NCBI GenBank assembly: GCA_002011035.2
Contig: MTLY02000003.1
Coordinates: 288,001-352,000 of the forward strand
Direction: 5' to 3'
DNA: 64,000 bases
Source: Candidatus Hecatella orcuttiae
GTDB lineage: Archaea > Thermoproteota > Bathyarchaeia > Hecatellales > Hecatellaceae
Below the pieces are notes generated by a model. The model saw only the letters and a list, made by a program, of their open reading frames with translations, made no database searches and was not told where the DNA came from. Shown here piece after piece: positions 8,549 through 25,192 of the stretch; positions within the stretch are counted from its first letter, which is position 1, and each line of letters begins with the position of its first letter. Both the position numbers and the translations under genes were made by a program.

Positions 8549-8618
8549 GAACCTAATTTTTCCCTAGGAACTGAAAGGTTGAGTTTCACGGTTTCTAAAA
8601 ATTTCCCATGTCAGTCTT

Positions 8619-9302: not shown

Positions 9303-9316
9303 GCGGCCCCTCCTGT

Positions 9317-10120
9317 CTACATGGGTTTTGGCTTTTCGAAGAAGTTTATCTGAAATTCGCAGTAGGGGTCGCCTTTGGCTTCGCAGAGGCTTTCTTTCCC
9401 ATGGCAGACCATGTCAGGTTCTAGATGTTGAAGCAATCCGGCCCAAAAACCGCGTTGGAAGTCGCAAGCAGGCTCCGTGGACTTTCGCTCGACGCTTTCA
9501 AAACTGCCACGGAGGCGGATGACAGCTTTTTTCTTAGGTTCGAAGGAGGCTGTCTCAATTTTATTTGCCCATCCCGAACTTGTGGTGGCTTCCACCACCT
9601 TGTTGAACAACTCCTTTCCTGCGAAGCCTTTCTCCGCCACCTTTTTGGCGAAGATGCCTCCCGCCTCCTTCCCCGCTCGGTAGAGCATGAGGGAAACTGC
9701 CCTCGGCTGGTACATTCGCTCAAGCCCTTCCCGAAGTCCGCGGAATATTCCCAAATCCAGACTGATATGCCTGAAGGCCCTGCTCAACGATGAACGCTCC
9801 CGCCATAGCATGGCAATCAAGCTTAGGGCGATCACCGTCAAGAGTATTTTGGGGCCAATCCATATTTTCAAAACTCCCGGATACCATCGGGCTGGGAGAA
9901 CCGCAGCCTGACCCGGATTGGTTGCCACGGTTAAGAAAAAATAGATTTCCTGCACCGTCAGAAAAAGGGATGCCATAACCATGAAAAGAAAGGGGCTTCT
10001 CAATTCCCCAGTGGAAACTTTAAACTGTTTGACGAAGTATCCGAATAAACCAGCCCACAAGCAAATGTTCAAAATGTAAACCGCTAAAACAAAAAACCAA
10101 TAACTCAATCTACTGACCAA
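9317..10120 (-). CDS. Membrane sensor with about 3 TM and a C-terminal V4R domain
   Basis: Hydrophobic N-terminus; V4R motifs PACDFQRGFWAG and ESLCEAKGDPYCEF. Confidence 0.8.
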   Translation of the reverse strand: MVSRLSYWFFVLAVYILNICLWAGLFGYFVKQFKVSTGELRSPFLFMVMASLFLTVQEIYFFLTVATNPGQAAVLPARWYPGVLKIWIGPKILLTVIALSLIAMLWRERSSLSRAFRHISLDLGIFRGLREGLERMYQPRAVSLMLYRAGKEAGGIFAKKVAEKGFAGKELFNKVVEATTSSGWANKIETASFEPKKKAVIRLRGSFESVERKSTEPACDFQRGFWAGLLQHLEPDMVCHGKESLCEAKGDPYCEFQINFFEKPKPM

Positions 10121-10272
10121 TAATCTTTTCCTAGAAAGAAATTTAAACTTTGCCTAAAAAACAGATTACGGCGCCTCACGCCTACACTCCTTCCAGTTGA
10201 AAGGTTTTAGCGCGGGAGCGTCAAAACTAAAAAGGTTGAACCTAAAACCTGTTTAGGGAGGGCCGTCCCCTC

Positions 10273-10293
10273 GGGGCCGTGGGCTAGCCTGGT
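10273..10293 (+). repeat. attL: 21-bp copy of the tRNA-Pro 5' end
   Basis: Identical to 23078-23098 and diverges immediately afterwards. Confidence 0.92.
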
Positions 10294-10362
10294 TTAACTT
10301 ACGATGTTACCGTAGCATAAACTTTATTAGAGAGGTTTGCGAAGAGTATTTTTTGAGGAGAA

Positions 10363-11685
10363 GTGTCCAGGGTAAGAGATTCTAAGGGGCGTTTTCTGAG
10401 GCAGGAGCACAGCTATTCCGCGTTGATGGGCTACCCTCAGGTGCGAAATTGGATAGACAATTACAGGAGCAAGGAGACCCGGGAAGCCTACATGCGCTGT
10501 TTGGAGACGGTGGTCAAGGAGACGGGGCTGTCCCCTGGCAGGTTGGTTAAGCTTCCAGTAGACAGGGCTAGGCACGCGGTCATGGGGGTGGTTCGGAAGC
10601 TTGTGCAGGATGGTAAGCTTACCATGGCCAAGCAGATTCAGATAGCCTTGAAGGGTTTCTTTGAGGCCAACGACAAGGAGCTTAAATTCAAGAGGGCGGA
10701 GCAGGTGAAGAGGGTTTCCAAGAAAGTTCATGCCCAAATCACCCCCACCCAGGAGGAAATCTACCGGATGGTCGACGCCCTGCCGGAGAAGAGGAACAAG
10801 GCCATTATACTGTGTCTTTTCCAGAGCGGTGTCCGGGTGGGCTGCCTCTGCCGGTGGACCTATGGACTGGTCAAAGACCAACTTTACCCTGAAATAAAGG
10901 TCCCCACGGTCTTGAAGATCACCAACGAAATCGACACCAAACTAAGCGGCTACGGGCTCCCCTACTATTACACTTTCCTCCAAGCTGAAGCAGCCCAAGC
11001 CTTGAGAGACTACTTGGATGAGCGAAAAGCCAAGGAGGGAGAGCTTAAGCCGGAGGACCCTGTTTTCGCCCCCCTGACAAGCAAGGCTACCAAGGAGGGC
11101 ATCGACGAGGTTAGAGTTTTAGAAGTGGTGAAGAGGGCGGCGAAAAGCATAGGCCTAGACCCCCGAGGCGTTTGGACCCACACCCTCCGAAAAAGCTTCA
11201 GGAAGGTCCTCTACGCCGCCAACATCGAAGACGACATGGCTGAAGCCCTGATGGGCCACAAGCTCCGGGGGTCGAAGGAAAGCTACTTCGACAAGAAAGA
11301 CCTGAGAGAGATTGCGGCCAACTACATGAGGGCTAACTTTTCAAGGGCCACCGTGCAGGTTACAGAGGAAGCATGGAAGGAAATCCGACGTCAACAGCTA
11401 CGCCGCGACATGAAGGAGCTTTACGGCGTCGACTTAGAGGAGCTTCTACGCCCCAAGATTGCGAAGATGAAAAGGCCGCTCACCATAGACGAGGAACTGG
11501 AGACCCTTGAATCCAAAGTTCGAGAGCTGTGGGGTATGAAACTGGCCAAGAAGCAAGAACCCAACGGCAGCGGCTTGGAACACCGCATAGTCCGCGAGGT
11601 GGAACTAGTCGACCTCCTGAACCAAGGCTGGGAAATGGTTAAGGAGCTAAGAGACGGCAGGATCCTAGTGAGAAAATCCGCCTAA
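10363..11685 (+). CDS. Tyrosine recombinase / integrase
   Basis: SGVRVG (R), HTLRKSF (HxxR), LMGH, SY catalytic Tyr; intact, not split by att. Confidence 0.92.
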   Translation: MSRVRDSKGRFLRQEHSYSALMGYPQVRNWIDNYRSKETREAYMRCLETVVKETGLSPGRLVKLPVDRARHAVMGVVRKLVQDGKLTMAKQIQIALKGFFEANDKELKFKRAEQVKRVSKKVHAQITPTQEEIYRMVDALPEKRNKAIILCLFQSGVRVGCLCRWTYGLVKDQLYPEIKVPTVLKITNEIDTKLSGYGLPYYYTFLQAEAAQALRDYLDERKAKEGELKPEDPVFAPLTSKATKEGIDEVRVLEVVKRAAKSIGLDPRGVWTHTLRKSFRKVLYAANIEDDMAEALMGHKLRGSKESYFDKKDLREIAANYMRANFSRATVQVTEEAWKEIRRQQLRRDMKELYGVDLEELLRPKIAKMKRPLTIDEELETLESKVRELWGMKLAKKQEPNGSGLEHRIVREVELVDLLNQGWEMVKELRDGRILVRKSA

Positions 11686-11969
11686 TATTTAGGAGGGACT
11701 TTTCCCCCAACGATGGTCTCTATCTCTCTTTTCCGTTCTTTATTGAGCAGAAACATGTCCTCATGGGGCTTCTTGTACCTTTGAAGTAAACCCTCCTTAG
11801 CGAGTTTTTCCACCTCATCCTTATACCAGCTGGTAGGGTAACATTTAGGCAAACCTTTCGGAATGTCGGTTTCCGCTATGTAGTTTCTACCCCAATTCCT
11901 ACCCATGACCAGCTTCTCGATGATGAGCCTTCTGATCTCCTTTCGTTCATCCTCGGAGGGTTTTCTCAT
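11682..11969 (-). CDS. Hypothetical protein, probable winged-helix fold
   Basis: 95-aa ORF from ATG 11969, divergent from the wHTH regulator. Confidence 0.6.
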   Translation of the reverse strand: MRKPSEDERKEIRRLIIEKLVMGRNWGRNYIAETDIPKGLPKCYPTSWYKDEVEKLAKEGLLQRYKKPHEDMFLLNKERKREIETIVGGKVPPKY

Positions 11970-12060
11970 AAAGTACTTTACCTTAAAGTAATATTTAAAG
12001 GTATTTTCAGTAATGCTTATATAGCCAACCACCAACTAACTAACATGAAGGTACCCGGCT

Positions 12061-12369
12061 ATGGAAAGGAAACCTGTGATAGAAGGAACGTTCAGCCGCC
12101 TCTTCGAAACACCCTTAGGCCGGGTGCTGGACGTGCTCATTCTCCACCGCGGCTACGACCTCTCCCTCAAAGAATTAGCCAACTATGCGGGCATTTCCCC
12201 GAAAACTCTCTGGAAGACCATGGCCAAACTCGAAAGCCTAGGCATCGTCAAACATACCCGCCGAATCGGCAACGCGAAAATGATCACCTTTAACCAAGAC
12301 TCTAACCCCCTAGGAGAACATCTTATCGCCCTAGAATATAGTATACCCCTCAAAGAAATGGAAAGTTAA
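12061..12369 (+). CDS. Winged-helix transcriptional regulator
   Basis: LSLKELANYAGISPKTLWKTMAKLESLGIV HTH plus wing. Confidence 0.8.
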   Translation: MERKPVIEGTFSRLFETPLGRVLDVLILHRGYDLSLKELANYAGISPKTLWKTMAKLESLGIVKHTRRIGNAKMITFNQDSNPLGEHLIALEYSIPLKEMES

Positions 12370-12600
12370 ACCTTCTCCGATACGCAAGTTATAAAGCTGA
12401 ATCTGCATTTCCCCGGAGCCTTCAAGCATATCACCTACTCCCCGGAATGGAAAAAGCCGGCGTTCACCAGCTAGTGCCTATCAATCCCCCAAATACCCTC
12501 TGTTAGGCACTGGAAAACCCCTACGTGGTGACTGTGGAGGTCTGAAACGGTGAAACCCATAAAATCAAGGAAATGTAGGAAACTAAACTAGATGGTTCGC

Positions 12601-13014
12601 TTACCTCAATTGTTTGATGGCTTTATCTATGATTTCAATTGCTTCTTTGAACCTTTTCTTGTTGAAATCCAACATGGATATGCCCATCGGGGGGTCTGGA
12701 CTATGAGAAAGTCCATGAATTGTCTCATCGTACGTATTCCTAATGATTCTATAAGTCTTTGCATCTAACTTCCGAACAAGGTCCGGTGTCAAATATGAAT
12801 AGATCTCCCTATGATAGTTGCGACCGCCGGTAAACCCGCTTTCTAAGTCTGAGGCTATGTCGCTTCTAATAATCTCAAGTTCTTCCCTTATACGTCGCTT
12901 TAATTCGGTTTTTTCATATTTTTGTACCCAAGAATAATGAGCTATGGAAGCCAAAAATCCGATAACTATGCCTAGACTTATCGAAAGGAGAGATGCCCAA
13001 AGAATTTCCATCAA
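12601..13014 (-). CDS. Hypothetical protein with N-terminal membrane anchor
   Basis: One N-terminal TM followed by a helical soluble part; AT-rich relative to flanks. Confidence 0.65.
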   Translation of the reverse strand: MMEILWASLLSISLGIVIGFLASIAHYSWVQKYEKTELKRRIREELEIIRSDIASDLESGFTGGRNYHREIYSYLTPDLVRKLDAKTYRIIRNTYDETIHGLSHSPDPPMGISMLDFNKKRFKEAIEIIDKAIKQLR

Positions 13015-13112
13015 TTTAGGTTACCAACTATATATAGTGCTCTATCTTGTTTAGGCTTTTTTCATGTCTTTACGTTTATTAAAGGGTTTTTCCTTAAACT
13101 TCTCGAGAAAAA

Positions 13113-13241
13113 ATGGAAAAACCTGATAGATGCCCAAAATGCGGAAAAGTCCGTAAAGGATACGTATTCCCTGCTGGACCTCAACCACCCCAAAACGTCG
13201 AATATTGCGATTGCGAACCCGAGCCACCCTATGCTAAGTAG
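13113..13241 (+). CDS. Small CPxCG zinc-finger protein (42 aa, below the ORF track cutoff)
   Basis: Manual translation MEKPDRCPKCGKVRKGYVFPAGPQPPQNVEYCDCEPEPPYAK. Confidence 0.5.
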   Translation: MEKPDRCPKCGKVRKGYVFPAGPQPPQNVEYCDCEPEPPYAK

Positions 13242-13364
13242 GCTTTCTCAAAAGTTGTGTCCATCCTTGTTCAATGCTGACCAAATTTTTGGACCGCATT
13301 CAAAGCAAAGGATGTTGAGAGGGGACCCTAGCCAAAAATTTGGCGAGGGTAAAGCTGTTGAGGT

Positions 13365-13523
13365 TTAGAGTTTTTTAACCAGCATATCCCCGTCGGTAAC
13401 GGTTACACCCAACAAGTCGCCTTCTTTTATCTCTAGGGCCTCCACCACTTCTTTTGGGATGGTCATTCGTAGGCTGTTCCCTATTCTTGTAACCTTGACC
13501 TTTAACATTATTGGCATGCTCAT
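13365..13523 (-). CDS. AbrB/MazE/SpoVT-family DNA-binding protein (52 aa)
   Basis: Manual translation MSMPIMLKVKVTRIGNSLRMTIPKEVVEALEIKEGDLLGVTVTDGDMLVKKL. Confidence 0.85.
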   Translation of the reverse strand: MSMPIMLKVKVTRIGNSLRMTIPKEVVEALEIKEGDLLGVTVTDGDMLVKKL

Positions 13524-13631
13524 AAGTTATACAAGGGTTATACTTAAATATAAGTGTATCCCTAATTATAATTGCGGATATACTCCGTATAACAAGAGAG
13601 ATGGGTAAAAGTATGGGGGTGAGAAAAAGGG

Positions 13632-13886
13632 TTGCCTAAGAAAAACTATGTGCAAAGAAAATTCCTGAACCCAATTGACCTGCACGTCTCCGTTCCCGGA
13701 GGCCTCTGGGAGGAACTCAAACGCCTGTTCTACGACCCCAGCTTCCACGTGGATGACAGCCATTTCTTAACGAGGATTCTGGAGGAATACCGCGACTACA
13801 AGTGGCCAAGAAAAGCCCTCTTAAATTTGGTTGAGTTGCACCGTGAAGAACTTGGCAAAGAAAAGGGGGTGAGCAAAGGGCCTTGA
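13632..13886 (+). CDS. Hypothetical protein, possible ribbon-helix-helix
   Basis: LHVSVPGGLWEELKR..SHFLTRILEEY; SD gggggtg upstream of the TTG. Confidence 0.55.
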   Translation: MPKKNYVQRKFLNPIDLHVSVPGGLWEELKRLFYDPSFHVDDSHFLTRILEEYRDYKWPRKALLNLVELHREELGKEKGVSKGP

Positions 13887-14056
13887 ACGACTATGTATTA
13901 GGCGCTCTAGAAACCTTGGCTTGGGTTCGAAAACAGATAGAAGCTGGGAGGAAGCCCGCGGAGCTTAAAGCCGAAATCAACAGCCTTCTCAAAGAGATCC
14001 TAGACAACGCGGCATTGCACGCTCTAGGCAAGGTTAAAGCCCAAGCCACCATCTAA
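13883..14056 (+). CDS. Small helical hypothetical protein (57 aa)
   Basis: Manual translation MNDYVLGALETLAWVRKQIEAGRKPAELKAEINSLLKEILDNAALHALGKVKAQATI; TTG overlaps the upstream stop; SD gggggtg. Confidence 0.6.
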   Translation: MNDYVLGALETLAWVRKQIEAGRKPAELKAEINSLLKEILDNAALHALGKVKAQATI

Positions 14057-14380
14057 AACCTCCCTCTACCCTATTTTTTTAGAAAATTTATGTCTAAAAT
14101 TTTAGTCAAATACTCGAGAAAATTTTAAAATTTTCGATCAGAAGTTTAAAATCGATGAAGTTCCCTATCTTTACTAACTACGTAATGAGGGTGATCGCGG
14201 ACTTGTACTCCGGTTGGATCGGGCATGGGCGGCCCAATAATTTCATTCCGCGATCCGTATGAGTGAAAGGACTGTCCTCCGAAAGCTTTTTTCCTTTGTT
14301 CACTCGAGCTTAAGGACTTTTCAAAATCCCAAACTTTTAGAGGGGGGTCGAGACGGCTGAACAGAAAAGATTGTGCATCT

Positions 14381-14650
14381 TTGATTTTAGAAGTACTCAA
14401 AAAGGCTGAGAGGCCGCTAGACGTAAAGAAAATTCAAGAACTAGCCGGCATCGCCCATTGGTCAGTTGCCTTGAACCACTTATTACAGTTGCTAATTGAG
14501 GGCCAAATAGCCGGCTTCAAGACCAGCAAATCATGGATATTCTTTCTCCCGGAGAACCTTCCTAAAACTCTTCTTGAGGAGAAACTCCAACCCAAAAACA
14601 CGCTTGGGGGGACTGTATACGGCTTGAGAGAGGTGAAAGGTGAATCATGA
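14381..14650 (+). CDS. Winged-helix DNA-binding protein
   Basis: ILEVLKKAERPLDVKKIQELAGIAHWSVALNHLLQLLIEGQI..SWIF. Confidence 0.65.
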   Translation: MILEVLKKAERPLDVKKIQELAGIAHWSVALNHLLQLLIEGQIAGFKTSKSWIFFLPENLPKTLLEEKLQPKNTLGGTVYGLREVKGES

Positions 14651-15528
14651 GCGAAAAGACCCCCACACCCTCTCCACGAGAGGATGTTTTCGCCATCATG
14701 GAGAGGAAGGACGAGGACCAGATTATTGCGGAACTGAAGGGGGCCTACCTGGATGAATTCGTCTACTCGTTCGAGCATGGTGATCGTCGTGTAGTTGGGC
14801 TTTCATGGTCAGGGGTAAAGGAGATAGCGTGGCGGCTGGGTTCAATCAGCGTAGACGACCTAACCGTTGAGGATAAGGGTGATTTTTGGCTAGCCAAATG
14901 CTCTGCGACTGACCACGTGAGAGGGAACCGGCGTTGGGGAGCCGCGGTCCAACCCAAAAAAATCGGCGACAAAGAAGACGTGTTTGCCCTCCCTAAGGCT
15001 GTTTCCAAAGCTCAACGAAATGCTATCAGAGCGGTCATCCCCGAGGCTATGATTAAGACATTCATAGACCGGTTTCTCGAAGAGAGCCGAACCAAGCAAC
15101 CATCTCCTACCCCTTCCGCAGAGGTTAAAACCGCCGCTGAAAAATCGTTGGCAGCCAATAATTTGGGCGAAATAACAGAGCTTAAAGCAAATGATGTTCC
15201 GCTGGCCATCTTAACCGTTAAACATGATGAAGCTTTCCTTACGCCTCAGCAGAAGTTTCATCTTTCCACGCCTCCTTGGGGCTCGTTTTTTGTAGCTAAG
15301 GTTTTGGAAGCTATGGTGGCGAAAGATGCCGAATTGGCGATGAAGGGGGAGATAGGACCGACCGATTTGTTCAGCTATAACATCGATGAAGAGGGGGGAA
15401 TTCTGCGAGAGGTGTATGTGCGAAACTGGAGAACAAAGGAAAGGCTTTCTCAGATTAAGAACGCAGCACGATGGACCCTAAGTAAAATGCTGGAGCGGAG
15501 TAAAACGCCGCAGGCTGGGGGCTCCTAG
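14647..15528 (+). CDS. Putative Rad52-superfamily single-strand annealing protein
   Basis: GLSWSGVKEIA..beta strands..PKAVSKAQRNAIR annealase-type helix; Pro-rich linker and C-terminal domain. Confidence 0.55.
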   Translation: MSEKTPTPSPREDVFAIMERKDEDQIIAELKGAYLDEFVYSFEHGDRRVVGLSWSGVKEIAWRLGSISVDDLTVEDKGDFWLAKCSATDHVRGNRRWGAAVQPKKIGDKEDVFALPKAVSKAQRNAIRAVIPEAMIKTFIDRFLEESRTKQPSPTPSAEVKTAAEKSLAANNLGEITELKANDVPLAILTVKHDEAFLTPQQKFHLSTPPWGSFFVAKVLEAMVAKDAELAMKGEIGPTDLFSYNIDEEGGILREVYVRNWRTKERLSQIKNAARWTLSKMLERSKTPQAGGS

Positions 15529-15529
15529 C

Positions 15530-16417
15530 ATGGAGTATGAGAGCATCGTAAGTTGGACGCGGGGTATCATAAGCCAGTATTCCATGGCCCTCACTTTGCG
15601 GCAGATCTACTACCGGTTGATTAGCCAACATCCCAGCATCCCCAACACGAAGAGCACCTATAACATGCTCAGCAAAATCTTGGTTAAAGCCAGGGAGCGG
15701 GGCGACATTCCTGAAGACGTCATCGAGGATCGGAGCAGGGAAACGATAGGCGGCGAAGGGTGGACATGGGACAGCCCCGACGACTTTCTTGAATACGTTA
15801 TGGAGGATTTCTCCTCCAAGTGGATGAGCTACAGTCGAAGCCTATGGGCTAGTCAACCTTGCTATGTGGAAGTTTGGGTGGAGAAAGACGCTCTTTCCCG
15901 GATAATCAGCGACGCTGTGGACGGTTTTAGGGTTAGAACTGCACCGAGCCGGGGCTATTCAAGCTTCACCTACGTGAGGGATGCGGTGAAACGGTTTGAA
16001 GGCTTACCCAACCGGTGGGTCGTAATATTGCATTTCTCGGACCATGACCCCAGCGGCTTGGATATGACAAGGGACCTTCAGGAGCGCTTTGACAGGTACG
16101 GTAACGGCCTCGAAATCCACGTGGAAAGGGTGGCCCTAACCTATGAACAAGTTCAAAAATACGGTTTGCCGCCAAACCCCACCAAGCGGGCGGACACCCG
16201 AAGCAAGGGCTACATCAGCCGATATGGGGATGGGTGCTGGGAGCTTGACGCCATAGAGCCTGACGAGCTTCAGCGGATGGTTAGAGCATCGGTGGCGAAG
16301 CACATCGTTCCCGAAGTTTGGAAGGGAGCTGTGGATAGGGAGGAGCAGGAGCGGGAACGTTTGAGGGTGAAATTTGAGGAATTCACCCGGCTTTTGAAGG
16401 GGAACGACCATGACTAG
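15530..16417 (+). CDS. Topoisomerase VI subunit A-like (Mini-A type) 5Y-CAP/TOPRIM protein
   Basis: TLRQIYYRL, VEVWVEKDAL, HFSDHDPSG, RVALT, WELDAI. Confidence 0.75.
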   Translation: MEYESIVSWTRGIISQYSMALTLRQIYYRLISQHPSIPNTKSTYNMLSKILVKARERGDIPEDVIEDRSRETIGGEGWTWDSPDDFLEYVMEDFSSKWMSYSRSLWASQPCYVEVWVEKDALSRIISDAVDGFRVRTAPSRGYSSFTYVRDAVKRFEGLPNRWVVILHFSDHDPSGLDMTRDLQERFDRYGNGLEIHVERVALTYEQVQKYGLPPNPTKRADTRSKGYISRYGDGCWELDAIEPDELQRMVRASVAKHIVPEVWKGAVDREEQERERLRVKFEEFTRLLKGNDHD

Positions 16418-17939
16418 TTTTTACTATGACCATTTTATCCCCTACGTTCAAAATAAGGTGAAGTGGGATGATCCCCTAGTTGACACCATCGCCAGGGTGG
16501 GTTTCTCCGCCTTCACCGACAATCCTTTAAACCTGTTTTTGAAGGGCCCCTCCAGTATTGGCAAGTCATATATTGTGAAGCATACCTTAGCTGCTTTCCC
16601 AAAGAAATGTAAATGGAACTTAGGGGGGATAAGTCCCAAGGCTCTAATCCACGACCCAAGGGCTGTTTTGGTCGATGAGGAGGGCAACATCCTCGAGCCC
16701 CCCACTGTTTCCAAGAAAGATGGCCCTGAAGCTTGGGAGGAATATAAAAGCAAGTTAAAACGCAGCCGGTATCTGATAGATCTTAAAAATGTTATTCTAA
16801 CTTTCCTTGAAAGCCCAAGCGAAGACACCTTCAACATGCTGAGGCCTATCCTAAGCCATGATGAAGTGGAAATAGAATACCGCATAGCCCCAAGAGGGCA
16901 AAGTGAGACTCATACCAAGAATATTGTGGTGAAAAACTGGCCTGCCATGATCTGTGCTACGACAGACAAGGATTATTTAGAGGACTTGGCCACCCGGAGC
17001 ATAACCGTAACCCCGAATGAATCCATTGAAAAATTCGCCGAAGCGCATAAAGTCACCGCGAAAAAGTATAGCATGCCCTCTTTACCCCAAGAGGACCTAG
17101 AATTTAAAGCTATCCGGGACTGGATAGCTCAAAAAATAGGTTCCGGCGTAAATGTTGTTTCCCCTCAGGCTGAAATGGTGGCTGTGTGGTTTCCCCACAA
17201 TTTAGCCCGAGACATGAGGGACTTCGACAAATACCTGAGCTTCGTAATTGGCAATTGCATCATACACGAGGAAGACAGGCCTAAGATTCGAATCAACAAG
17301 CTATGGGAGTTCACCATCACAACTTTGGATGATTTCTTGGCGATCGACCGTTTTTGGAGCCAAATTATCAAAACTACCCGGATGGGGATCTCCGCTGGGG
17401 CCATCGAACTATATGAGAAGGTCCTTATTCCCCTTAGTGAGGAAGGCATTAATCTTAACACAATAACCATACGTGAAAGGTATTCCGAAGTTTTCAAAAA
17501 ACCCATAGCTCCCTCCAACCTTTCAGGCAAACTGAAAGAGCTTCTAAATTTGAACTTGATCGAAGAGGCGACCGACGAGGCGGACCGTAGAAGAAAGCGG
17601 TATATCCTCATAGACAGTGATAAGGCTGAAAATGTTTCAAATTACTTCAGTAATCGATTGGTGGGCTTATTTGACCAAGACATCCTCAATATGTGGTTAG
17701 ATTCTCTAAAAAATTATTTCACGCAAAAAGGACTTTGTAAAGAATCATTCAACTACGAGTTCATCTACAAAGGTGATGTTATAAAAACTGAATTTTTGCT
17801 GAAATATCTTAACTCTTTCAATTTAGTTCAAAAAACCAATTCAAGCTTAGAAATTAAATCAAAAAACGAAATGAAACATTCTGAAGGAAATCTCGAAACA
17901 CTTCAAATTAAAACTTTTAGGGAGGCTGAAACTGGTTGA
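16410..17939 (+). CDS. P-loop ATPase, putative MCM/AAA+-like replicative helicase with C-terminal wHTH
   Basis: LFLKGPSSIGKS Walker A, ILTFLE, EDLATR, RDMRD. Confidence 0.65.
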   Translation: MTSFYYDHFIPYVQNKVKWDDPLVDTIARVGFSAFTDNPLNLFLKGPSSIGKSYIVKHTLAAFPKKCKWNLGGISPKALIHDPRAVLVDEEGNILEPPTVSKKDGPEAWEEYKSKLKRSRYLIDLKNVILTFLESPSEDTFNMLRPILSHDEVEIEYRIAPRGQSETHTKNIVVKNWPAMICATTDKDYLEDLATRSITVTPNESIEKFAEAHKVTAKKYSMPSLPQEDLEFKAIRDWIAQKIGSGVNVVSPQAEMVAVWFPHNLARDMRDFDKYLSFVIGNCIIHEEDRPKIRINKLWEFTITTLDDFLAIDRFWSQIIKTTRMGISAGAIELYEKVLIPLSEEGINLNTITIRERYSEVFKKPIAPSNLSGKLKELLNLNLIEEATDEADRRRKRYILIDSDKAENVSNYFSNRLVGLFDQDILNMWLDSLKNYFTQKGLCKESFNYEFIYKGDVIKTEFLLKYLNSFNLVQKTNSSLEIKSKNEMKHSEGNLETLQIKTFREAETG

Positions 17940-18067
17940 AGTGTCCCATCCTGCCAAATCACAGTACAGACATCGACGGGCGTTGCTCAAGGGAAGCCTT
18001 CTGCCGGTATGCCCGCCTCCCAGAGTGTCCGCGCCGCCGCGGCAGAGCAAGGGAGGGAAAGCCGTAG
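17936..18067 (+). CDS. Small Cys-rich basic protein (43 aa)
   Basis: Manual translation MKCPILPNHSTDIDGRCSREAFCRYARLPECPRRRGRAREGKP; TTG overlaps the upstream stop; SD ggagg. Confidence 0.45.
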   Translation: MKCPILPNHSTDIDGRCSREAFCRYARLPECPRRRGRAREGKP

Positions 18068-18106
18068 TGGCCTCCCTTTTTCATGTTCACGTTCATGGTG
18101 TAAAAG

Positions 18107-18319
18107 ATGAAGAGAAAGAAAACCCTCCAAACTGAGGAAGCGGTTCCGAGCTACGCCGCAGATGGCCCCTGGCCATTCCCTTGGGTGTCCATCAGACTGG
18201 AAAGTGAAGGCGAGGCCTTCAACATCACCCTGCACACCCTCGTTTCCGTCGACGCCATGGCAAAAAGCGTTGAGAAAATCGCCGACGAGTTGAGGAAGTT
18301 GAGGGGCTTGAAAATATGA
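18107..18319 (+). CDS. Small hypothetical protein
   Basis: 70 aa; ATGA overlap with the next gene. Confidence 0.55.
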   Translation: MKRKKTLQTEEAVPSYAADGPWPFPWVSIRLESEGEAFNITLHTLVSVDAMAKSVEKIADELRKLRGLKI

Positions 18320-21300
18320 GCCAACAGGAAGCCCAAAAGAAAAACGGCGAACCCTTAACAGCCGTCGCCTACGTGGACACTTCCAAACTCCCCAAAGGTT
18401 ACCGGTGGTCAGGGACACCGGGCCGGTCGGCCATTCTTACGCCCCGCGGCGTGGCGATTCCCCCGCCGGGTCCTAGAGGCTACGAAACCTACGGGTCAGC
18501 GGAAAAAGAGCAGCGAGAATTTGAACGGTTAGCCACGAAAATCGAGATCCGCGGAGGCCCCAAAGCGGGGAGAGCCGTCACCGTCACAGGCCTCGCCCCC
18601 GGCGAAACCGTGGAAGAGGCTGCCCGCCGGGCGGCTAGGGAGCATGTGAAATTGGCCACAGGCAGAGAGCCTAGGGTCCAAATCGTCTACGGAGCCCGGG
18701 TGGCTGCGAGAGGCGGGAGAAGGGTGGTTGAACCCGTAGCGGGGATAGTCCAACCCACTGGCGTACCCGTGTTCGCCTTGAAAGCTGAACTCACCCCGAA
18801 AGCCAAACGGGAAGTCGAAGCCTTCCTAGCGGGAACCCCCTACAAGGAGCCGGAGTTGAGGGAAACACCGGAAGGCGTCGAACTAGCCTACAAGGTGGAG
18901 GAGCCCGGTGAAACCTATTGGGTGGTGGAAGGCTATCCTGAGCGGCGGTTTGCCACCGAGGCGGAAGCCCGAGCCTTCGCCGAACTGGTATCAGGCCCAA
19001 GAGCCGAATTGGCAGCGGACCTAGGAGGCAGGGAGGGGGCGATCCCCCTAGCCCCCGGCATCTTCAAAACCATCGAGGACACCGTGTTCGACCCCGACGC
19101 GCCCATCCTAGGTTATGTGGAAATTCCCCGCAAACCTTTGGCTGTTCACCCCCTCGGAGCCTACCCGGCTCCCTTCACCACTTACAGGGAAGCCCGGCCT
19201 TTTACCAGCGTTTTTGAAACCCCAACCGGGGAAACCATGGTCGAACCCGACGTCTTCGCTGAACCGCCTTCTCTGCCCAAATCCTTAACCGAGCAGCGGC
19301 TTGAGAAGCTTTTCGCCCTAGAGAAAATGCTGGGAGAGCTTGAGGGACCTCCTGAAGAGTTCGCCGCCCTCGGAGCCTACGCCATAGGGGTCCCCCCGAC
19401 CAAGGAGGAGTTTGAGGCTGTCACAGGCTACCGGCCTGAAAGGGAGGCCGCCCAGCTTCTCGGCAGGTCCATAATCGAGTATGAGAAGGCCTTCGCCGCG
19501 CCCGTCTACGGCATCACCGAGAACATCGTTAGAACCGTGGAAGACATCCACGGAGCGGTCACGGGAAGAGAGCTTTTCCCCATCCCCTATGCCGTGAGGG
19601 TGAAGGCTGCCCCTGAAGAATTCCTGTCCCTAGAAGCCCGCGCCGTCACGGGGAGGATTTCGAAGAAAGAACTGGAAGCCGTCGCCGCCTACAGGCCTGA
19701 GTTCAGGTTTGAAGTCGTCCCTGAACTTGAAAAACCCTACACGCCGAAGCCCTACGCCCCCACAGCCTTCCAAGCGGTCCTCACATCGGTTCTGGAAACT
19801 GGAAAACCCCTAGCCGAACCTCCACCTGAAGCCCTCCCAGGTTTGGGGAGGTTGGCTGTCGGCGTTCCCCCCACCGAGAAAGAACTTGAAGCCATCACCG
19901 GCTACCGCCCCACCGTTAGGCCCGTCCTTTCCAAGGAGATGCGGCGGCTGCTCAAACCTGAGATGCGGGGTTACGCGTTGGGCTCCCTTCTCTACGAGGC
20001 CGCGCTGTGGTATGGAATAAGCAAACCCTTGGAGAAAGGGCTTAGGCTCACCTCCAAAGGTATAGGCAAAATAGTTGAATATTATAGGGCTCCCTTCAGA
20101 CCAAGGGTTCCTCCCACAACCAGATACGTTGAACGAGTCCCCGGGGCCCTAGTTAAGAGGGTGGGGTATCCGAAGAGAACTCAGAAAACTTTCCGGGAAA
20201 TCCCCTATACGAGGCTTGGCGTGGAAGACCTTAAAGTGGTCCCTCCTGAAGGGTACAGGCCTCCCTTGGCTAGCCATTTACGGGTCATCGAGGTGACCGC
20301 AAAGCGGCAGGCCAAGCTTCCAGAATATTTCGTGATAACAGCCAAAGACGTAACTGATGTAATCCCATCCAAAGAGGCGGTTTCCCTATTTCCCAAAATC
20401 TTGGGGAAAACCCGTAGAATCCAAGTCCCTCCAACCCAGGCGACGGAGTTCATCTTCAGAATTAAGAAGGGCAGAATCCGGTTGGTGGCGGAGGTTCCCT
20501 CGACCATGCGCGGTGTCCCCATAGCGATGAGGCCTTGGAAGAGGGTAGGGGGTCTACAAGAAACCTTAGGCCCTAAGTTTCGATGGACCCCCGTCAAACC
20601 TAGAGCTAGGGAGATTCTGAAGATTGAAGAAGAGTTCACCAAGGAAGTAGGCTACAAACCTCGAACACCGATTCCCCCCAGCCGCCAAACCTTCCTAGCC
20701 CCGCCTCCACCGGGGAGGCCCTATGAAGCCATACCCGCCCCGCCTCCCTCGGTCATGGAGAAAGCCGTCGAAGCCGTGGACCCCTTCGCCCGGTGGTCCC
20801 CCATCCTAGCCGCCCAAGCCTACCTCCAACCCCGGGTCACGTATCCCAAGGGAACCGACATGTGGGCCCGGTTGGAGGGGAGGTTTAAACTCCCACCCGA
20901 ATACCGAACACCCACCAAGTTAGGCGTAGCCCCCACCCGCAAGCCTAAGTTTAAACCCTACCCCAAACCGTACCCCGCCATCCTCCGCATGAGAAAAAGA
21001 GGGAAACTCTTCGAAAGGGGAACCGTCGGGTTTAATGTCGACGTGGACCGCGCCTTACGCCCCTTAACAAAGATAACCCGCCAACCCGCCCGCAAACCTA
21101 AGGAGGCCCCCGCCGCCGACATCGCCCAAGAGATCTTCCCCAGGATGAGGGAGAGGCCCACCGTCGGGGTTACGCCCACTCCCCGTTTTAAGGTGGCCCC
21201 TGGGCAGAGGGTAGGCGTCATGCCCCGGCAGCTTCTCAGACAGGTTGCTGAAACTGTTCAAATGCAGGTTGAGCGCCCATGGGAGAGAAGACGGATACGC

Positions 21301-21507
21301 CGTCCTCCACCGCTGTTCCTGTTTCCCCCCCGACGTGGGAAAACTAAGAAGACACTCTTGCCTGAATGGCGCTACAAGGAATACCGACACTACATAGGCG
21401 ACCCGTTTCAGGGAATGAGGGGTCCCCTCAAAAACTTGAACGCCTTCTTGGCCGGCAAGAAGCCGGCGAAAAAGAAGGGGAAACGCAAGAAGCGGAGGAA
21501 AAGGTGA
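18316..21507 (+). CDS. 1063-aa Pro/Arg/Glu-rich protein with internal repeats and a basic tail
   Basis: Long uninterrupted ORF; three G(V/R)xxxxxE(L/F)EA(V/I)xxYRP repeats; ends KKPAKKKGKRKKRRKR. Confidence 0.85.
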   Translation: MSQQEAQKKNGEPLTAVAYVDTSKLPKGYRWSGTPGRSAILTPRGVAIPPPGPRGYETYGSAEKEQREFERLATKIEIRGGPKAGRAVTVTGLAPGETVEEAARRAAREHVKLATGREPRVQIVYGARVAARGGRRVVEPVAGIVQPTGVPVFALKAELTPKAKREVEAFLAGTPYKEPELRETPEGVELAYKVEEPGETYWVVEGYPERRFATEAEARAFAELVSGPRAELAADLGGREGAIPLAPGIFKTIEDTVFDPDAPILGYVEIPRKPLAVHPLGAYPAPFTTYREARPFTSVFETPTGETMVEPDVFAEPPSLPKSLTEQRLEKLFALEKMLGELEGPPEEFAALGAYAIGVPPTKEEFEAVTGYRPEREAAQLLGRSIIEYEKAFAAPVYGITENIVRTVEDIHGAVTGRELFPIPYAVRVKAAPEEFLSLEARAVTGRISKKELEAVAAYRPEFRFEVVPELEKPYTPKPYAPTAFQAVLTSVLETGKPLAEPPPEALPGLGRLAVGVPPTEKELEAITGYRPTVRPVLSKEMRRLLKPEMRGYALGSLLYEAALWYGISKPLEKGLRLTSKGIGKIVEYYRAPFRPRVPPTTRYVERVPGALVKRVGYPKRTQKTFREIPYTRLGVEDLKVVPPEGYRPPLASHLRVIEVTAKRQAKLPEYFVITAKDVTDVIPSKEAVSLFPKILGKTRRIQVPPTQATEFIFRIKKGRIRLVAEVPSTMRGVPIAMRPWKRVGGLQETLGPKFRWTPVKPRAREILKIEEEFTKEVGYKPRTPIPPSRQTFLAPPPPGRPYEAIPAPPPSVMEKAVEAVDPFARWSPILAAQAYLQPRVTYPKGTDMWARLEGRFKLPPEYRTPTKLGVAPTRKPKFKPYPKPYPAILRMRKRGKLFERGTVGFNVDVDRALRPLTKITRQPARKPKEAPAADIAQEIFPRMRERPTVGVTPTPRFKVAPGQRVGVMPRQLLRQVAETVQMQVERPWERRRIRRPPPLFLFPPRRGKTKKTLLPEWRYKEYRHYIGDPFQGMRGPLKNLNAFLAGKKPAKKKGKRKKRRKR

Positions 21508-21746
21508 TGGTGTCGAAGAGGTTGGTTAAAATCACCCTCCGAGCCCGCAGGAAGGGGCCCCCTGTTTGCCGGTACTGCCATCGACCCCTCCAGCCTAGGG
21601 AACGGGCCTGGAGGTATGTCACCCGATATGGCGTCGTCTACGCTTGCCCAACCTGTGAGGAAAACCCGGTCATCACCCCTGTGCTCCCCGTTCCCCGCAA
21701 AAAGAAACCCGTTCAGGTGGAACTACCGCTTGGAAGGCCCTCTTAA
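21507..21746 (+). CDS. Small zinc-finger protein
   Basis: CRYC..CPTC; ATG overlaps the upstream TGA. Confidence 0.6.
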   Translation: MVSKRLVKITLRARRKGPPVCRYCHRPLQPRERAWRYVTRYGVVYACPTCEENPVITPVLPVPRKKKPVQVELPLGRPS

Positions 21747-22068
21747 AGCCCAAGAGGAAAGGCTGCGGAGAGAGTTGCGGAGGCTTGAACGCAGCCTAGG
21801 CCTAGTTCCAGGTGAGTTACGCCTAGAATGGATGCCGACGGAAGACGGAAAAGAAAACGACGGTGAAGTGAAAGGGGGAACTGTCCGCATTTATGCTAAA
21901 GATTTTAAAAAGGCCAAACAGACCCTCAAACATGAGTTAGTGGACTTGGTCCTGTCAAGGTATGAGCAGCCTTGGAGGGACTTGGCTTTCACCCTTCTTG
22001 AAAACTTCACCAAGTCCCAATATCGACGAAAGGAGGCTTTGGTCGAACGGCTTTGCAACCTAATTTAG
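21730..22068 (+). CDS. Minimal zincin-like protein with degenerate HExxD motif
   Basis: GEVKGGTVRIY..TLKHELVD. Confidence 0.55.
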   Translation: MEGPLKAQEERLRRELRRLERSLGLVPGELRLEWMPTEDGKENDGEVKGGTVRIYAKDFKKAKQTLKHELVDLVLSRYEQPWRDLAFTLLENFTKSQYRRKEALVERLCNLI

Positions 22069-22156
22069 GCGGAAAGGCGGCCCTCCAAAAAGGGCCAAGG
22101 GTCGGCCTCCCTTTTCCCTTGGTTTGGCCATGGCCCACCGCCCCGCAAACAAGGAG

Positions 22157-23065
22157 ATGGTGAAACTGGAAGTGGTTGAAGAGGAGGTTGAAGAGGAAAA
22201 GGGCTTAGCCGCCGCCAGCCTCTTCCGGCAAGCCTATAAGAACCATGGCTACGTGCAGCTTTTCATCATCGGCCCCCAAGGCGTAGGCAAGACCACCTAC
22301 TCCTTGCAAATAGCTTGGGAAGTCTACCGGAGCCTCCACCCGCAACTAACCGACCAAGAAGTTTGGGACCTAGTCTTAGACCGGCTTTTCTTCGACGTTC
22401 GCCCTTCCATCGCCCTGTTCCGGTGGGCTCGGCAACACGGCAAACGCATCCCCCTGGTAATCTACGATGACGTAGGCGTCCACCTGTCCAAGTACACTCC
22501 GTTTCAGAAGGGAGGCTACGGGGTGGTGAAGGCTGTGGCCTCTCTCTTCGACACCATAAGAACCATCTGTAACGGTGTGATCATCACCAGCCCTAAGCTT
22601 CACAGCATAAAAGCGGTGCAGGAGCTTTCCTGGTACAAGGCTAAAATCTTCAAAACCGATGACGGCCTAATCCGCCAAGCTAAGGTTTGGGAGTACACCG
22701 AGGAAGTGTGGGGGGACCCTTGGCATTCATGCATAATAACGGATGACTTCTACCTGTGGCTCCCTCCCGACGTGAGAAAACGCTATGAAGAAAAACGAGG
22801 GGAAACCGTCGACGCCATCTTGGATGAGTGTGAACGAGCCCTAACCAAGACTCCGAGATATACTTTAAATTGCTGTGAAGTATATGAGCTATACCGGGAA
22901 TGTGGTAACTTGAGAGAAACAGCTAGAAGGTTGAATAAGCCTTATTCAACCATCCAGGGAGCCTTAGACCGCCACCGCCGACACACAGGGATGAACGACG
23001 ACGCCTCAAGGGTTTATGGTAATGCTCCCGGAAAAATCCACATTCCTGAAGAATCAAAAAATTGA
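22157..23065 (+). CDS. Fusellovirus B251-like ATPase with C-terminal HTH
   Basis: IIGPQGVGKTTYSLQIAWEVY..LFFD..RIPLVIYDDVGVHLSKY..IRTICNGVIITSP resembles SSV1 B251 as recalled; GNLRETARRLNKPYSTIQGAL HTH. Confidence 0.7.
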   Translation: MVKLEVVEEEVEEEKGLAAASLFRQAYKNHGYVQLFIIGPQGVGKTTYSLQIAWEVYRSLHPQLTDQEVWDLVLDRLFFDVRPSIALFRWARQHGKRIPLVIYDDVGVHLSKYTPFQKGGYGVVKAVASLFDTIRTICNGVIITSPKLHSIKAVQELSWYKAKIFKTDDGLIRQAKVWEYTEEVWGDPWHSCIITDDFYLWLPPDVRKRYEEKRGETVDAILDECERALTKTPRYTLNCCEVYELYRECGNLRETARRLNKPYSTIQGALDRHRRHTGMNDDASRVYGNAPGKIHIPEESKN

Positions 23066-23077
23066 ATATGCTACGTT

Positions 23078-23186
23078 GGGGCCGTGGGCTAGCCTGGTCT
23101 ATGCTTGGTGGCTTGGGCCCACCAGATCGCCGGTTCAAAAGGGCGCAGGCGAAGGCTGAGCCCTGAAACTCCGGCCGGCCCCACCA
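23078..23186 (+). tRNA. tRNA-Pro(TGG) with a 30-nt T-loop intron (23140-23169), encoded CCA; contains attR
   Basis: Acceptor ggggccg/cggcccc, anticodon arm ggtgg-cttgggc-ccacc, canonical BHB (ttca/tgaa helix, bulges aaa and act). Confidence 0.92.
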
Positions 23187-23254
23187 CAGAGCTGAAGTTT
23201 TCCAAGCCTAGGCCCAAAAAACTTTAAGGTTCAGGGCGGCTCTGATCTAATCGC

Positions 23255-23407
23255 GCCGGGGTCGCCTAGAAGCACCCCTAAAGGGTGTTGGGAAACCTGG
23301 TAGGGCGCAGTTCCCGCGCGAAGGGAGCCCAAGCCTGCTAACCGGCTGAGGCAGCGAGTCTGTGGCTCGTTGGAGCCTCATGGGTTCAAATCCCATCCCC
23401 GGCGCCA
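23255..23407 (+). tRNA. tRNA-Ser(GCT) with three introns (23270-23295, 23311-23332, 23341-23356)
   Basis: Removing the three segments gives a canonical cloverleaf GCCGGGGUCGCCUAGCCUGGUAGGGCGCAGGC-CUGCUAA-GUCUG with long variable arm, T arm and GCCA. Confidence 0.85.
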
Positions 23408-23477
23408 CCAACCCCACCCCTGAGGGTTGCAGCCGGGCAGCCGGCTTGCTGTCTGTTTCTGTCTCTCCAAAAAAAAA

Positions 23478-23509
23478 GCTATACCATATTTGGCCAAATA
23501 TGGTATAGC
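23478..23509. repeat. Perfect 32-bp palindrome next to an A9 run
   Basis: gctataccatatttgg|ccaaatatggtatagc. Confidence 0.9.
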
Positions 23510-23533
23510 CGGCGTGGGGGTTCTTCCAAGGGC

Positions 23534-23821: not shown

Positions 23822-23994
23822 GGGTAACCGAAGCTTATACCCCTCCGAGGCTTATAAGTTGCTATTTAACACCTGTAAAACACTCGGCCGAAAAGGTTCC
23901 TGAAAGCTCGCAGGGAAGGGAAACGTTTAATTTCGTTCCCCGCCCACTATAAGGTCCAGTTGGCAGCGGAGCCAAAACTGGAAGTGAAAGCCCC

Positions 23995-25164: not shown

Positions 25165-25192
25165 ACCTCCACCCTTCCAAGGGGGGCGCTGT

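Follow-up and report, generated by a model that had tools for sequence, protein, structure and literature searches.

A 12.8-kb integrated element with a fusellovirus-type ATPase and no recognisable capsid gene in a genome of Bathyarchaeia: a candidate plasmid-virus hybrid

The mobile elements of Bathyarchaeia, which are among the most abundant archaea in sediments, have hardly been charted. The present work deals with a 12.8-kb integrated element at positions 10273-23101 of a 64,000-nucleotide stretch of DNA from Candidatus Hecatella orcuttiae (Bathyarchaeia). This whole stretch is called the window here and corresponds to positions 288001-352000 of contig C3 of the host genome, which comprises 1.75 Mb in three contigs and is 97% complete. 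An original prediction, made from the letters of the window only, had described the element as capsid-less, with an ATPase like B251 of fuselloviruses, and had proposed a satellite of a virus of Bathyarchaeia or a new small provirus.

Several kinds of described elements come near to this locus. Until recently satellites of archaeal viruses were known from Sulfolobales only, and they have now been proposed for haloarchaea, for nanohaloarchaea and for one Asgard culture (10.1101/2025.02.15.638363 among the sources), and no satellite of Bathyarchaeia turned up in a limited literature search. The plasmid-virus hybrid pSSVx of Sulfolobus/Saccharolobus encodes homologues of B251 and A154 and spreads with its helper SSV2, a precedent that the original prediction had invoked and that the source supports (PMC9608457). 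The earliest description of B251 was as a DnaA-like protein, and the same account implicates it in "replication and packaging" (PMC9608457). SRCEs and PL6-family plasmids, found in haloarchaea and nanohaloarchaea, are likewise proposed to be satellites; in them a spindle-virus ATPase accompanies replication genes of plasmid type (10.1101/2025.02.15.638363). For Bathyarchaeia a survey describes four proposed virus families and a single spindle-shaped provirus, Huangdivirus ("Huangdiviridae"), whose AAA+ ATPase belongs to the ATV/fusellovirus type (PMC10541130). Cryptic integrated elements (CIEs) of Thaumarchaeota are defined by exclusion and have no signature gene; as described, they contain an integrase and att sites, are usually found in tRNA genes and are mostly smaller than 20 kb (PMC6563490). 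WyrdV4 and the "enigmatic MGEs" (mobile genetic elements) of Asgard archaea are small elements in which a Topo mini-A and an AAA+ ATPase occur together, and the authors propose that Mini-A is a possible replication initiator which is freely exchanged among archaeal viruses and mobile elements (10.1101/2021.07.29.453957).

The element of the window fits the class of cryptic integrated elements and also the layout of plasmid-virus hybrids of the pSSVx, pSSVi or SRCE kind. We take pSSVx to belong to the pRN plasmid type and both pSSVx and pSSVi to be about 5-6 kb long. With pSSVx the element shares the lack of a capsid gene, a replication module of its own, AbrB-like and winged helix-turn-helix (wHTH) regulators (C68 and Stf76 in pSSVx) and a B251-type ATPase (PMC9608457, 10.1101/2025.02.15.638363). 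It differs in that pSSVx is described as non-integrative (PMC1635272), whereas the 12.8 kb of the present element were integrated by its own integrase. Furthermore, its putative replication set consists of an annealase, a Mini-A and a P-loop protein, its ATPase has an added helix-turn-helix (HTH), and it carries an orphan protein of 1063 amino acids (aa). An ATPase without a capsid gene, as in pSSVx, is thus found, whereas an A154 homologue, which pSSVx possesses, is not detectable, beside the ATPase or elsewhere in the element.

The likeness to SRCEs and PL6 plasmids is that replication genes of non-viral type stand together with only part of a spindle-virus morphogenetic module, namely the ATPase with or without a capsid protein (10.1101/2025.02.15.638363). 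SRCEs are described as circles of 2.7-9.0 kb with a rolling-circle Rep or a primase-helicase, free at high depth and targeted by CRISPR (10.1101/2025.02.15.638363); the element of the window, in contrast, is integrated, stands at host depth, has no spacer match, belongs to another archaeal class and uses a different replication set. As required for CIEs (PMC6563490), it contains an integrase, att sites and several genes and shows no hallmark of a virus, casposon, integrative and conjugative element or insertion sequence, and it departs from the typical CIE in hitting the 5' end of a tRNA gene and in carrying a spindle-virus ATPase. With Huangdivirus it has in common the host class, integration, a tyrosine integrase and the AAA+ ATPase; by its description Huangdivirus additionally encodes homologues of the two-helix-hairpin proteins VP1-VP3 and a glycosyltransferase (PMC10541130), neither of which is found here. 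WyrdV4 differs by its capsid and adhesin genes, its rolling-circle Rep and an ATPase closest to pI of filamentous phages (10.1101/2021.07.29.453957).

Boundaries, integrase and tRNA target

We regard it as solidly established that a mobile element has inserted site-specifically at 10273-23101 and is intact there; it brings its own genes for integration, regulation and replication, and no means of transfer is recognisable. A repeat search in 8000-26000 returned one long direct repeat (10273-10296 and 23078-23101; 24 nucleotides (nt), 96% identity), which encloses 12.8 kb. Its first 21 nt are exact, as the original prediction of exact att repeats had it, and the whole 24 nt contain one mismatch; by an arithmetic estimate, chance would produce about 4e-5 exact 21-mer repeats in 18 kb. 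The left copy, attL (10273-10296, without strand), repeats the first 24 nt of a tRNA-Pro gene (21 exact, then one mismatch) and forms the left end of the element. The right copy, attR (23078-23101), is the 5' end of the tRNA-Pro(UGG) gene itself, which extends over 23078-23186 on the forward strand with an insertion of ~30 nt in the T-loop and an encoded CCA. Since the tRNA gene begins with the right copy, the element recombined with the 5' end of that gene: the tyrosine integrase joined it to the first 21-24 nt of tRNA-Pro(UGG) and the gene is complete at attR. Integration at 5' ends of tRNA genes is stated to be "considerably less frequent" than at 3' ends in a survey of thaumarchaeal integrated mobile elements (PMC6563490).

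Neither ARAGORN nor Rfam at its gathering score calls a tRNA gene at 23078-23186. The tRNA-like part of the Rfam tmRNA model (acceptor stem and T-arm) aligns to this region with a T-loop insertion of 32 nt (E 1.2e-4), and after in silico removal of about 28-32 nt from the T-loop ARAGORN calls tRNA-Pro(TGG) from 23078. A tRNA was called in 157 of 480 deletion variants, and all 40 of those calls that were inspected were tRNA-Pro(tgg). The insertion occupies a non-canonical intron position. The 5' end of the tRNA-Pro gene was matched in six of 13 other genomes of the family, with identical first 24 nt in the six loci inspected, and since the same 24 nt recur there we consider it a stable target. 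At two loci (L042 in genome G023 and L048 in genome G035) the tRNA-Pro sequence diverges directly after nucleotide 24, where the att core ends; this could reflect an intron at that place or a leftover att copy of other elements. A second tRNA-like gene is seen 70 nt downstream (~23253-23410) with ends resembling an acceptor stem and a T-arm and apparently with several insertions; ARAGORN and Rfam at gathering score give no call there, and the matches to tmRNA or tRNA-like models are weak and partial.

The integrase gene (10363-11685, forward strand, 440 aa) belongs to the tyrosine recombinases, with matches to PF00589 (E 3.1e-9; 37.3 bits at a cut-off of 27.1), to phrog_216 (7.6e-14) and to a XerA-like model (2.5e-16, below the cut-off of that model). 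With its catalytic motifs and its full length it is intact, as originally predicted; the open gene begins 67 nt inside attL and was not split by integration. We take this behaviour to be that of the non-partitioning, presumably pNOB8-like integrase type. A second tyrosine-recombinase homologue, 29% identical to the integrase, is located at 279184-279765 of contig C3, ~8 kb before the start of the window, and could mark another integrated element or be XerA of the cell.

Every gene of the element has an open frame, integrase, Mini-A and ATPase possess their catalytic motifs, and no pseudogene or frameshift was seen. The flanks consist of housekeeping genes (Orn/DAP decarboxylase, KaiC-like, V4R, aminotransferase, GATase and TrmI). 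As the V4R gene of the left flank is not conserved (one weak match in the 13 other family genomes), an unoccupied attB could be shown in none of these genomes. Among public runs the element is present in nine listed ones from eight studies, with no RNA run among those listed, and the contigs of four runs from four studies were compared. A single contig of run X2 agrees over 8500-23507 at 100% identity, the listed pieces from the three other runs are without differences, and other contigs bridge attL and attR. Parts of the stretch compared, e.g., about 20730-21630, are without contig cover in runs X5, X6 and X7. A doubling of depth at 17867-18417 (X2, X5) with a loose end at 18238 was considered as the junction of a sibling element and rejected as an artefact. 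The string at this loose end is absent from the host genome and from IMG/VR and occurs in an abundant contig of an Archaeoglobus metagenome-assembled genome (L055), a contig that has only a chance match of ~23 nt to the window. The host genome also lacks the string at a second loose end (21249).

Replication operon, ATPase and the search for structural genes

Four translationally coupled genes follow each other at 14381-17939, with a 4-nt stop/start overlap at 14647-14650, abutment at 15528/15530 and an 8-nt overlap at 16410-16417. Such overlap or abutment at every junction confirms the tightly coupled operon that the original prediction had read as wHTH, annealase-like, TopoVI-A-like and helicase-like genes; the annealase-like and TopoVI-A-like labels stand, and for the helicase the P-loop protein is supported and the activity itself is inferred. 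The first gene (14381-14650, forward strand) encodes an 89-aa HTH protein with a weak match to HTH_52 (E 0.0045).

The second product (14647-15528, forward strand, 293 aa) is a putative single-strand annealing protein of the Rad52 fold. From an alignment of 24 homologues including itself AlphaFold2 yielded a model with block-mean pLDDT above 90 for residues 51-140, and the N-terminal ~150 residues are predicted to adopt the Rad52 fold. In a Foldseek comparison with the PDB the top 11 matches were RAD52 chains (E 3.4e-5 to 4.4e-4, probability 1.00), followed at lower rank by Mgm101, Red-beta and RecT. Only half of the model takes part in the alignment, hence the low TM-scores (0.23-0.36). According to this model the protein has the beta-beta-beta-alpha core of the Rad52 N-terminal domain. 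A sequence search of the PDB gave no match. Some homologues have acidic tails, which we take to resemble those of single-strand binding proteins. Its C-terminal ~110 residues are 32-40% identical to two chromosomal proteins of the host, so the annealase may use a host-derived interaction domain. These host proteins (contig C1, 320600-321193; contig C2, 27505-28077) are uncharacterised, of ~190 aa each, and consist of a coiled coil and a C-terminal domain.

The third gene (15530-16417, forward strand) encodes 295 aa that match phrog_6247 ("DNA topoisomerase") with E 2.5e-70 over residues 18-287 and profile positions 33-294 of 303. Topo mini-A proteins are described as about 300 aa long and composed of 5Y-CAP and Toprim domains only, and the motif xWELDAL is reported to separate them from Topo VI and Topo VIII (PMC7671362). 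The motif of the catalytic tyrosine (RxxY/F-Y) is present as R24-Q-I-Y-Y28, the Toprim metal ligands (E, then DxDxxG) as W-V-E-K-D and D-H-D-P-S-G, and the T2BI box near the C-terminus as C-W-E-L-D-A-I with the final L of xWELDAL replaced by I. With all four defining motifs found, the protein is identified at sequence level as a stand-alone Topo mini-A. It is 35-39% identical to phage proteins, some of them annotated as "DNA topoisomerase"; next to Mini-A in Xylella phage Sano and in Microbacterium phage BirdInFrench no annealase or helicase is annotated.

The fourth gene (16410-17939, forward strand) encodes a P-loop NTPase of 509 aa with a C-terminal HTH, assigned to the MTBMA_p00010 type in the ESM Atlas (feature score 0.98, structural TM 0.78) through a cluster that is 55% archaeal and in which Bathyarchaeota are commonest. 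In bacterial clusters of the same atlas the MTBMA_p00010 P-loop domain is fused to Toprim primases. No match was found in Pfam, PHROG or the PDB. From this one source of evidence, the ESM Atlas, the protein may be a putative replicative helicase or loader.

The ATPase gene lies at the right end of the element (22124-23065, forward strand; probable start 22157, giving 302 aa). Its match to phrog_5484, a profile of fusellovirus B251/DnaA-like AAA+ ATPases, covers profile positions 8-233 of 239 (E 8.1e-37), and the alignment shows intact Walker A (G-P-Q-G-V-G-K-T-T) and Walker B (V-I-Y-D-D) motifs. In a tblastn search 67 archaeal virus records were matched, assigned to Sulfolobus, Sulfolobales, Betafusellovirus, Acidianus, Bicaudavirus and Aeropyrum, with the DnaA-like protein of SMF1 as the best (35% identity, E 4e-27). 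The B251-like P-loop ATPase of the original prediction is therefore well supported. Unlike pI of filamentous phages it has no hydrophobic or transmembrane (TM) segment. An extra C-terminal HTH at residues ~250-290 (HTH_38, weak, E 0.0044) is shared in the alignment with its two closest relatives. In the PDB sequence search both this protein and Mini-A gave matches at chance level only (E >= 0.11).

Genes for a virion or for conjugation were not recognised, in agreement with the original prediction. At E <= 0.1 none of 19 open reading frames (ORFs) matches a structural or packaging PHROG, and at the same threshold neither Pfam (19 ORFs) nor NCBIfam (17 ORFs) yields a capsid, portal, terminase or VirB4/VirD4 (TrbE/TraG-type) family. 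No ORF of at least 30 aa in 10273-23101 has two hydrophobic segments, and only three ORFs have one. By the hydrophobicity scan a two-helix capsid protein of ~60-100 aa as in spindle-shaped viruses is absent from the ORFs of the element, unlike four loci with related ATPases (L007, L016, L021 and L037) that do carry small ORFs with two hydrophobic helices. The term capsid-less is meant here as far as these homology and hydrophobicity tests reach.

Regulatory genes and orphan proteins

Between integrase and operon the element carries a block of small genes. A 117-aa ORF (11682-12035, reverse strand), convergent with the integrase gene and overlapping it by 4 nt, may encode a small wHTH protein (weak AbiEi-N-like match, E 0.0048); it has no match in Pfam or PHROG. 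It is followed by a wHTH regulator of 102 aa (12061-12369, forward strand; HTH_11 6.6e-7, HTH_24 2.2e-4), by a 137-aa protein (12601-13014, reverse strand) with one N-terminal TM helix (single hydrophobic segment, residues 1-30) and no family match in Pfam, PHROG or NCBIfam, and by a DNA-binding protein of 52 aa with the AbrB/MazE (SpoVT-AbrB) fold (13365-13523, reverse strand; PF04014 4.4e-13, TIGR01439 1.1e-8). Two small coupled ORFs of 84 and 57 aa (13632-14056, forward strand) complete the block. The wHTH and AbrB assignments of the original prediction hold. Its ribbon-helix-helix label for the two coupled ORFs receives no support from the profiles of Pfam, PHROG and NCBIfam, where phrog_3364 (0.077, for the 57-aa ORF) is the sole match at E <= 0.1, and the pattern is plausible by eye only. 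The stretch before the operon (14057-14380, without strand) is AT-rich (GC 0.44-0.47), contains short palindromes at 14091-14152 and is a candidate promoter, operator or origin. A PADLOC search of 17 ORFs returned no credible defence system, with weak matches to HTH domains for two small regulators (best E 7.8e-7).

At 18 kb the GC content rises from 0.41 to 0.60. The genes form a mosaic in this respect, with 42.5% in the P-loop gene, 51% in the Rad52-like gene, 52-54% in the genes of integrase, Mini-A and ATPase and 0.56-0.60 across the giant gene, which suggests modules of different origin. The GC-rich segment after the 509-aa gene (17936-18100) was considered as a structured RNA and rejected (folding z-score 0.26); neither IMG/VR nor the genome collection matched a 26-nt pattern taken from it.

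The second module starts with a 70-aa ORF (18107-18319, forward strand; a match to Pfam DUF2321 at E 0.016 is not credible) that is coupled by a 4-nt overlap (18316-18319) to the gene of the 1063-aa orphan (18316-21507, forward strand). This giant protein contains 12% proline, is net positive (K+R 17.5%, D+E 11.4%) and has a poly-basic C-terminal tail; the GC content at the third codon position is like that of the other genes of the element. Searches found only the protein itself in 5.8e9 proteins and, by HMMER over the complete set, in 1.84e9 representatives, and the ESM Atlas holds no neighbour (best score 0.76). It is predicted to be mostly disordered, the AlphaFold2 model from the single sequence having a mean pLDDT of 38.5 with the last 320 residues as coil. 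It has no signal-like N-terminal and no hydrophobic C-terminal segment, nor features of end-filament or adhesin proteins like VP4 or C792. The earlier description as a repeat protein is not supported: TRF finds no real tandem repeat, and three loosely similar motifs of ~20 aa are seen by eye.

The next gene (21507-21746, forward strand) probably starts at 21507, where its ATG overlaps the stop of the giant gene by 1 nt, and would then encode a Zn-ribbon protein of 79 aa. Its CxxC...CxxC motif and a weak Zn-ribbon match (NF011481, E 0.0034) agree with the Zn finger proposed before. Directly upstream of the ATPase gene follows a 150-aa orphan ORF (21616-22068, forward strand), the start of which is uncertain (21616, 21628 or 21730). 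It had been labelled zincin-like, for which there is no support, the motif being H-E-L-V-D and not HExxH; the sole match in four libraries is Pfam SLIDE (E 0.091), and a comparison with phage records gave no convincing match. The codon-position GC of this ORF is atypical, with GC3 below GC2. For this reason it was considered that it may not be a real gene, a question for which about 107 codons are too small a sample.

Relatives and competing readings

The lineage of the ATPase is rare. It occurs in five of 401 genomes of the class, the host counted, and among 5.8 billion proteins only seven were found, including itself. Profile scans, for which an alignment of six sequences was used as one of nine ATPases was too divergent for the locus search, gave 25 metagenome loci and three genome loci. 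In a tree of 19 rows (the element, three database proteins and 15 of 31 loci, those with fewer than 150 aligned residues being dropped) the element groups with relatives of 68% and 61% identity (support 94/98); a clade of metagenome contigs stands next to this group, and SMF1 is separate.

In more distant contigs (33-39% identity) the surroundings of the ATPase are of another kind. In those examined (L016, L021 and L037) it adjoins two-TM ORFs of 62-75 aa, and L037 and L013 encode large proteins with N- and C-terminal hydrophobic segments. Taken together with L007, these contigs show the ATPase among multi-TM ORFs of 62-94 aa and near such large proteins, and by architecture only they are read as spindle-virus-like. 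L007 itself is an 8.3-kb contig from the family of the host (genome G005, contig C12) with five small ORFs that have 2-4 hydrophobic segments, a phrog_5484 ATPase (1.1e-32; 24-27% identical to that of the element), a protein of 126 aa that has an HExxH motif and a TM segment, and one of 856 aa that carries a signal peptide and a C-terminal anchor. It is possibly a virus of Bathyarchaeia, spindle-virus-like in the architecture of its membrane proteins. The 68% relative lies in L001 (genome G035, contig C184, 2180-3316), where the ATPase and a 97-aa two-TM ORF form an islet between housekeeping genes. Orthologues of the flanking genes are found ~90 kb from the element in the host genome, i.e. 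at another chromosomal place, and this islet could be a remnant or a minimal element.

The nearest approach to the gene set of the element is L008 (genome G282, contig C51, 1-~10700), an integrated element from another family of Bathyarchaeia that adjoins genes of pyruvate:ferredoxin oxidoreductase on a contig cut at one end. It encodes a Mini-A (32% identity over 280 aa; phrog_6247 1.7e-33), directly followed by a P-loop protein of 485 aa, an integrase of 251 aa, a B251-like ATPase of 358 aa (phrog_5484-type, 1.1e-8), PadR and a ParB-like protein. Its gene order is different, its P-loop protein of 485 aa shows no relationship to the 509-aa protein of the element, and it has no annealase, giant or other common gene. 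Among the four loci L007-L010 it is the only one with a second gene of the element, namely Mini-A, and no second gene was detected in any of 27 further ATPase loci (L012-L038) or of 17 annealase loci (L060-L076). No syntenic relative was found in these searches, and neither the 31 ATPase loci nor the 17 annealase loci contain a larger close relative, with structural genes or otherwise. The gene combination is therefore unique in what was searched, whereas each module is of a known type. This bears out the original remark that the combination is not familiar from any described family, and the search of archaeal genomes and viral contigs for the same synteny, which had been proposed there, returned no relative with the same gene set.

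We favour the reading that this is a cryptic integrated plasmid-virus hybrid and a candidate satellite of a spindle-shaped virus, with a probability that stays somewhat short of an even chance. It is ranked first because the element fits the CIE class and the plasmid-virus hybrids, because pSSVx and the SRCE/PL6 elements are precedents and because Bathyarchaeia are known to harbour a spindle-shaped provirus that has an ATPase of this type. The pair of possibilities put forward originally, satellite or new small provirus, is a fair one for an intact element without detectable capsid gene; of the two the satellite stays an inference. The life cycle would be as follows. The excised circle would be copied by the module of the element, Mini-A cutting or nicking, the P-loop protein unwinding or loading and the annealase handling single strands, with DNA synthesis by host polymerases. 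Transfer between cells would most likely occur via a co-infecting spindle-shaped virus: the B251-like ATPase, guided by its HTH to the DNA of the element, might feed it into helper virions as is assumed for the Sulfolobus satellite pSSVx.

A number of observations weigh against the hybrid and satellite reading. With 12.8 kb the element is larger than SRCEs (2.7-9.0 kb) and also than pSSVx and pSSVi at the sizes assumed above, and a quarter of it is taken by the 1063-aa orphan. With its added C-terminal HTH the ATPase could just as well act in replication or loading in the manner of DnaA. No counterpart of A154 was detected: the 150-aa ORF compared with the SMF1 protein at the A154 position gives a BLASTP E of 3.8, it has no PHROG match, and hhalign gives it a probability of 0.1% against the conserved ORF that precedes the ATPase gene in six relatives. 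The contexts of the two closest ATPases are not visibly viral, two scans of IMG/VR yielded no relative of the ATPase, and none of the 21 proteins neighbouring the ATPase in the distant contigs matches a structural PHROG. A helper provirus with a related ATPase is missing in the host genome at its 97% completeness, which contains one copy of the ATPase. A comparison of this genome with ORFs of at least 60 aa from nine virus-like or MGE-like contigs gave no homologue except ATPase, Mini-A and housekeeping proteins.

The state of the element in its host points in the same direction. In the contigs of the four runs neither an attP nor an empty attB joint, both proposed as checks in the original prediction, was seen and only the integrated form occurs; contigs drop rare forms, so the missing excised form does not show immobility. 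In run X5 the depth of the element (9.98-12.4) is that of the host (flanks 9.1 and 12.6). CRISPR spacers, proposed as a further check, did not match either, the 80 spacers of the host having no match longer than 13 nt to the element. The host has two CRISPR arrays on contig C3 (237818-239304 and 699569-704006) with 20 and 60 spacers and 37-nt repeats, and against the fetched loci its spacers reach at most 22 nt with two mismatches, which is at chance level.

Several of these points would be expected of an integrative plasmid without dependence on a virus, a reading we consider rather unlikely and nevertheless the most serious competitor. The ATPase would then be an origin-binding initiator or helicase loader, and the element would be inherited mainly vertically with occasional transfer by some means such as vesicles or cell fusion. 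In DnaA, too, an HTH follows the AAA+ domain, the HTH of the present ATPase is common to its two closest relatives, and B251 is both DnaA-like and implicated in "replication and packaging" in the account cited (PMC9608457). Besides Mini-A there is no recognisable initiator, the closest relatives of the ATPase stand outside viral contexts, only the integrated form at host depth is seen, and L008 pairs the ATPase family with a Mini-A and an integrase and has no two-TM ORF among its non-antisense genes. Against a plasmid initiator stands the distribution of this ATPase family, whose archaeal members occur in spindle-shaped and related viruses and in proposed satellites; it is not a general plasmid initiator. 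Moreover, the match to the HTH is weak, and the gene, placed in the GC-richer module after a hairpin/T-run, is at the opposite end from the replication operon.

An autonomous temperate virus of a new kind, in which the orphans (the 1063-aa, 150-aa and 70-aa proteins and the 137-aa protein with one TM helix) would be structural and the ATPase would drive assembly or egress, is in our estimate unlikely. About 4.4 kb (18107-22068) encode proteins without detectable relatives, the giant having been compared with large protein libraries and the other orphans with family libraries and phage records only. This orphan block is co-oriented with the ATPase, at the place where spindle viruses keep their morphogenesis genes, and the strongly basic tail of the giant could bind DNA. 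However, the ORFs with two hydrophobic helices that accompany the ATPase in relatives are missing, and the giant has no signal peptide or anchor and is predicted to be mostly disordered, at a mean pLDDT of 38.5 in a single-sequence model that is weak evidence. Virion proteins of a circulating virus would also be expected to have relatives, which the orphans do not in the collections searched, and the contigs give no sign of an episomal or over-represented form.

A decayed remnant of a spindle-shaped provirus, immobile after loss of its morphogenetic genes, is quite improbable. In favour of it are the larger virus-like gene sets around relatives of the ATPase, the islet L001, which demonstrates that an ATPase and one two-TM ORF can persist among host genes, and the lack of an excised form in the contigs. 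Against it, the element has no pseudogene or frameshift, att copies that differ at one position, a whole integrase, preserved operon coupling and a full replication module not shared by fuselloviruses such as SMF1, and no larger close relative emerged from the loci searched.

In its most far-reaching form the finding would be the integrated form of an archaeal virus kind not seen before or the first spindle-virus satellite of Bathyarchaeia, with the giant as a new DNA-condensing or virion protein and with a new replication cassette initiated by Mini-A together with an annealase and a primase-type P-loop NTPase. We hold this to be doubtful, with a low chance of being true; elements of this kind are already described as plasmid-virus hybrids and as cryptic integrated elements with a spindle-virus ATPase. 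If it were merely a cryptic integrative plasmid, it would be an ordinary member of a large and poorly understood class. As a bounded and intact element with a spindle-virus ATPase and no capsid gene it is a test case for the role of B251-type ATPases in replication, packaging or egress, and likewise for the function of Topo mini-A.

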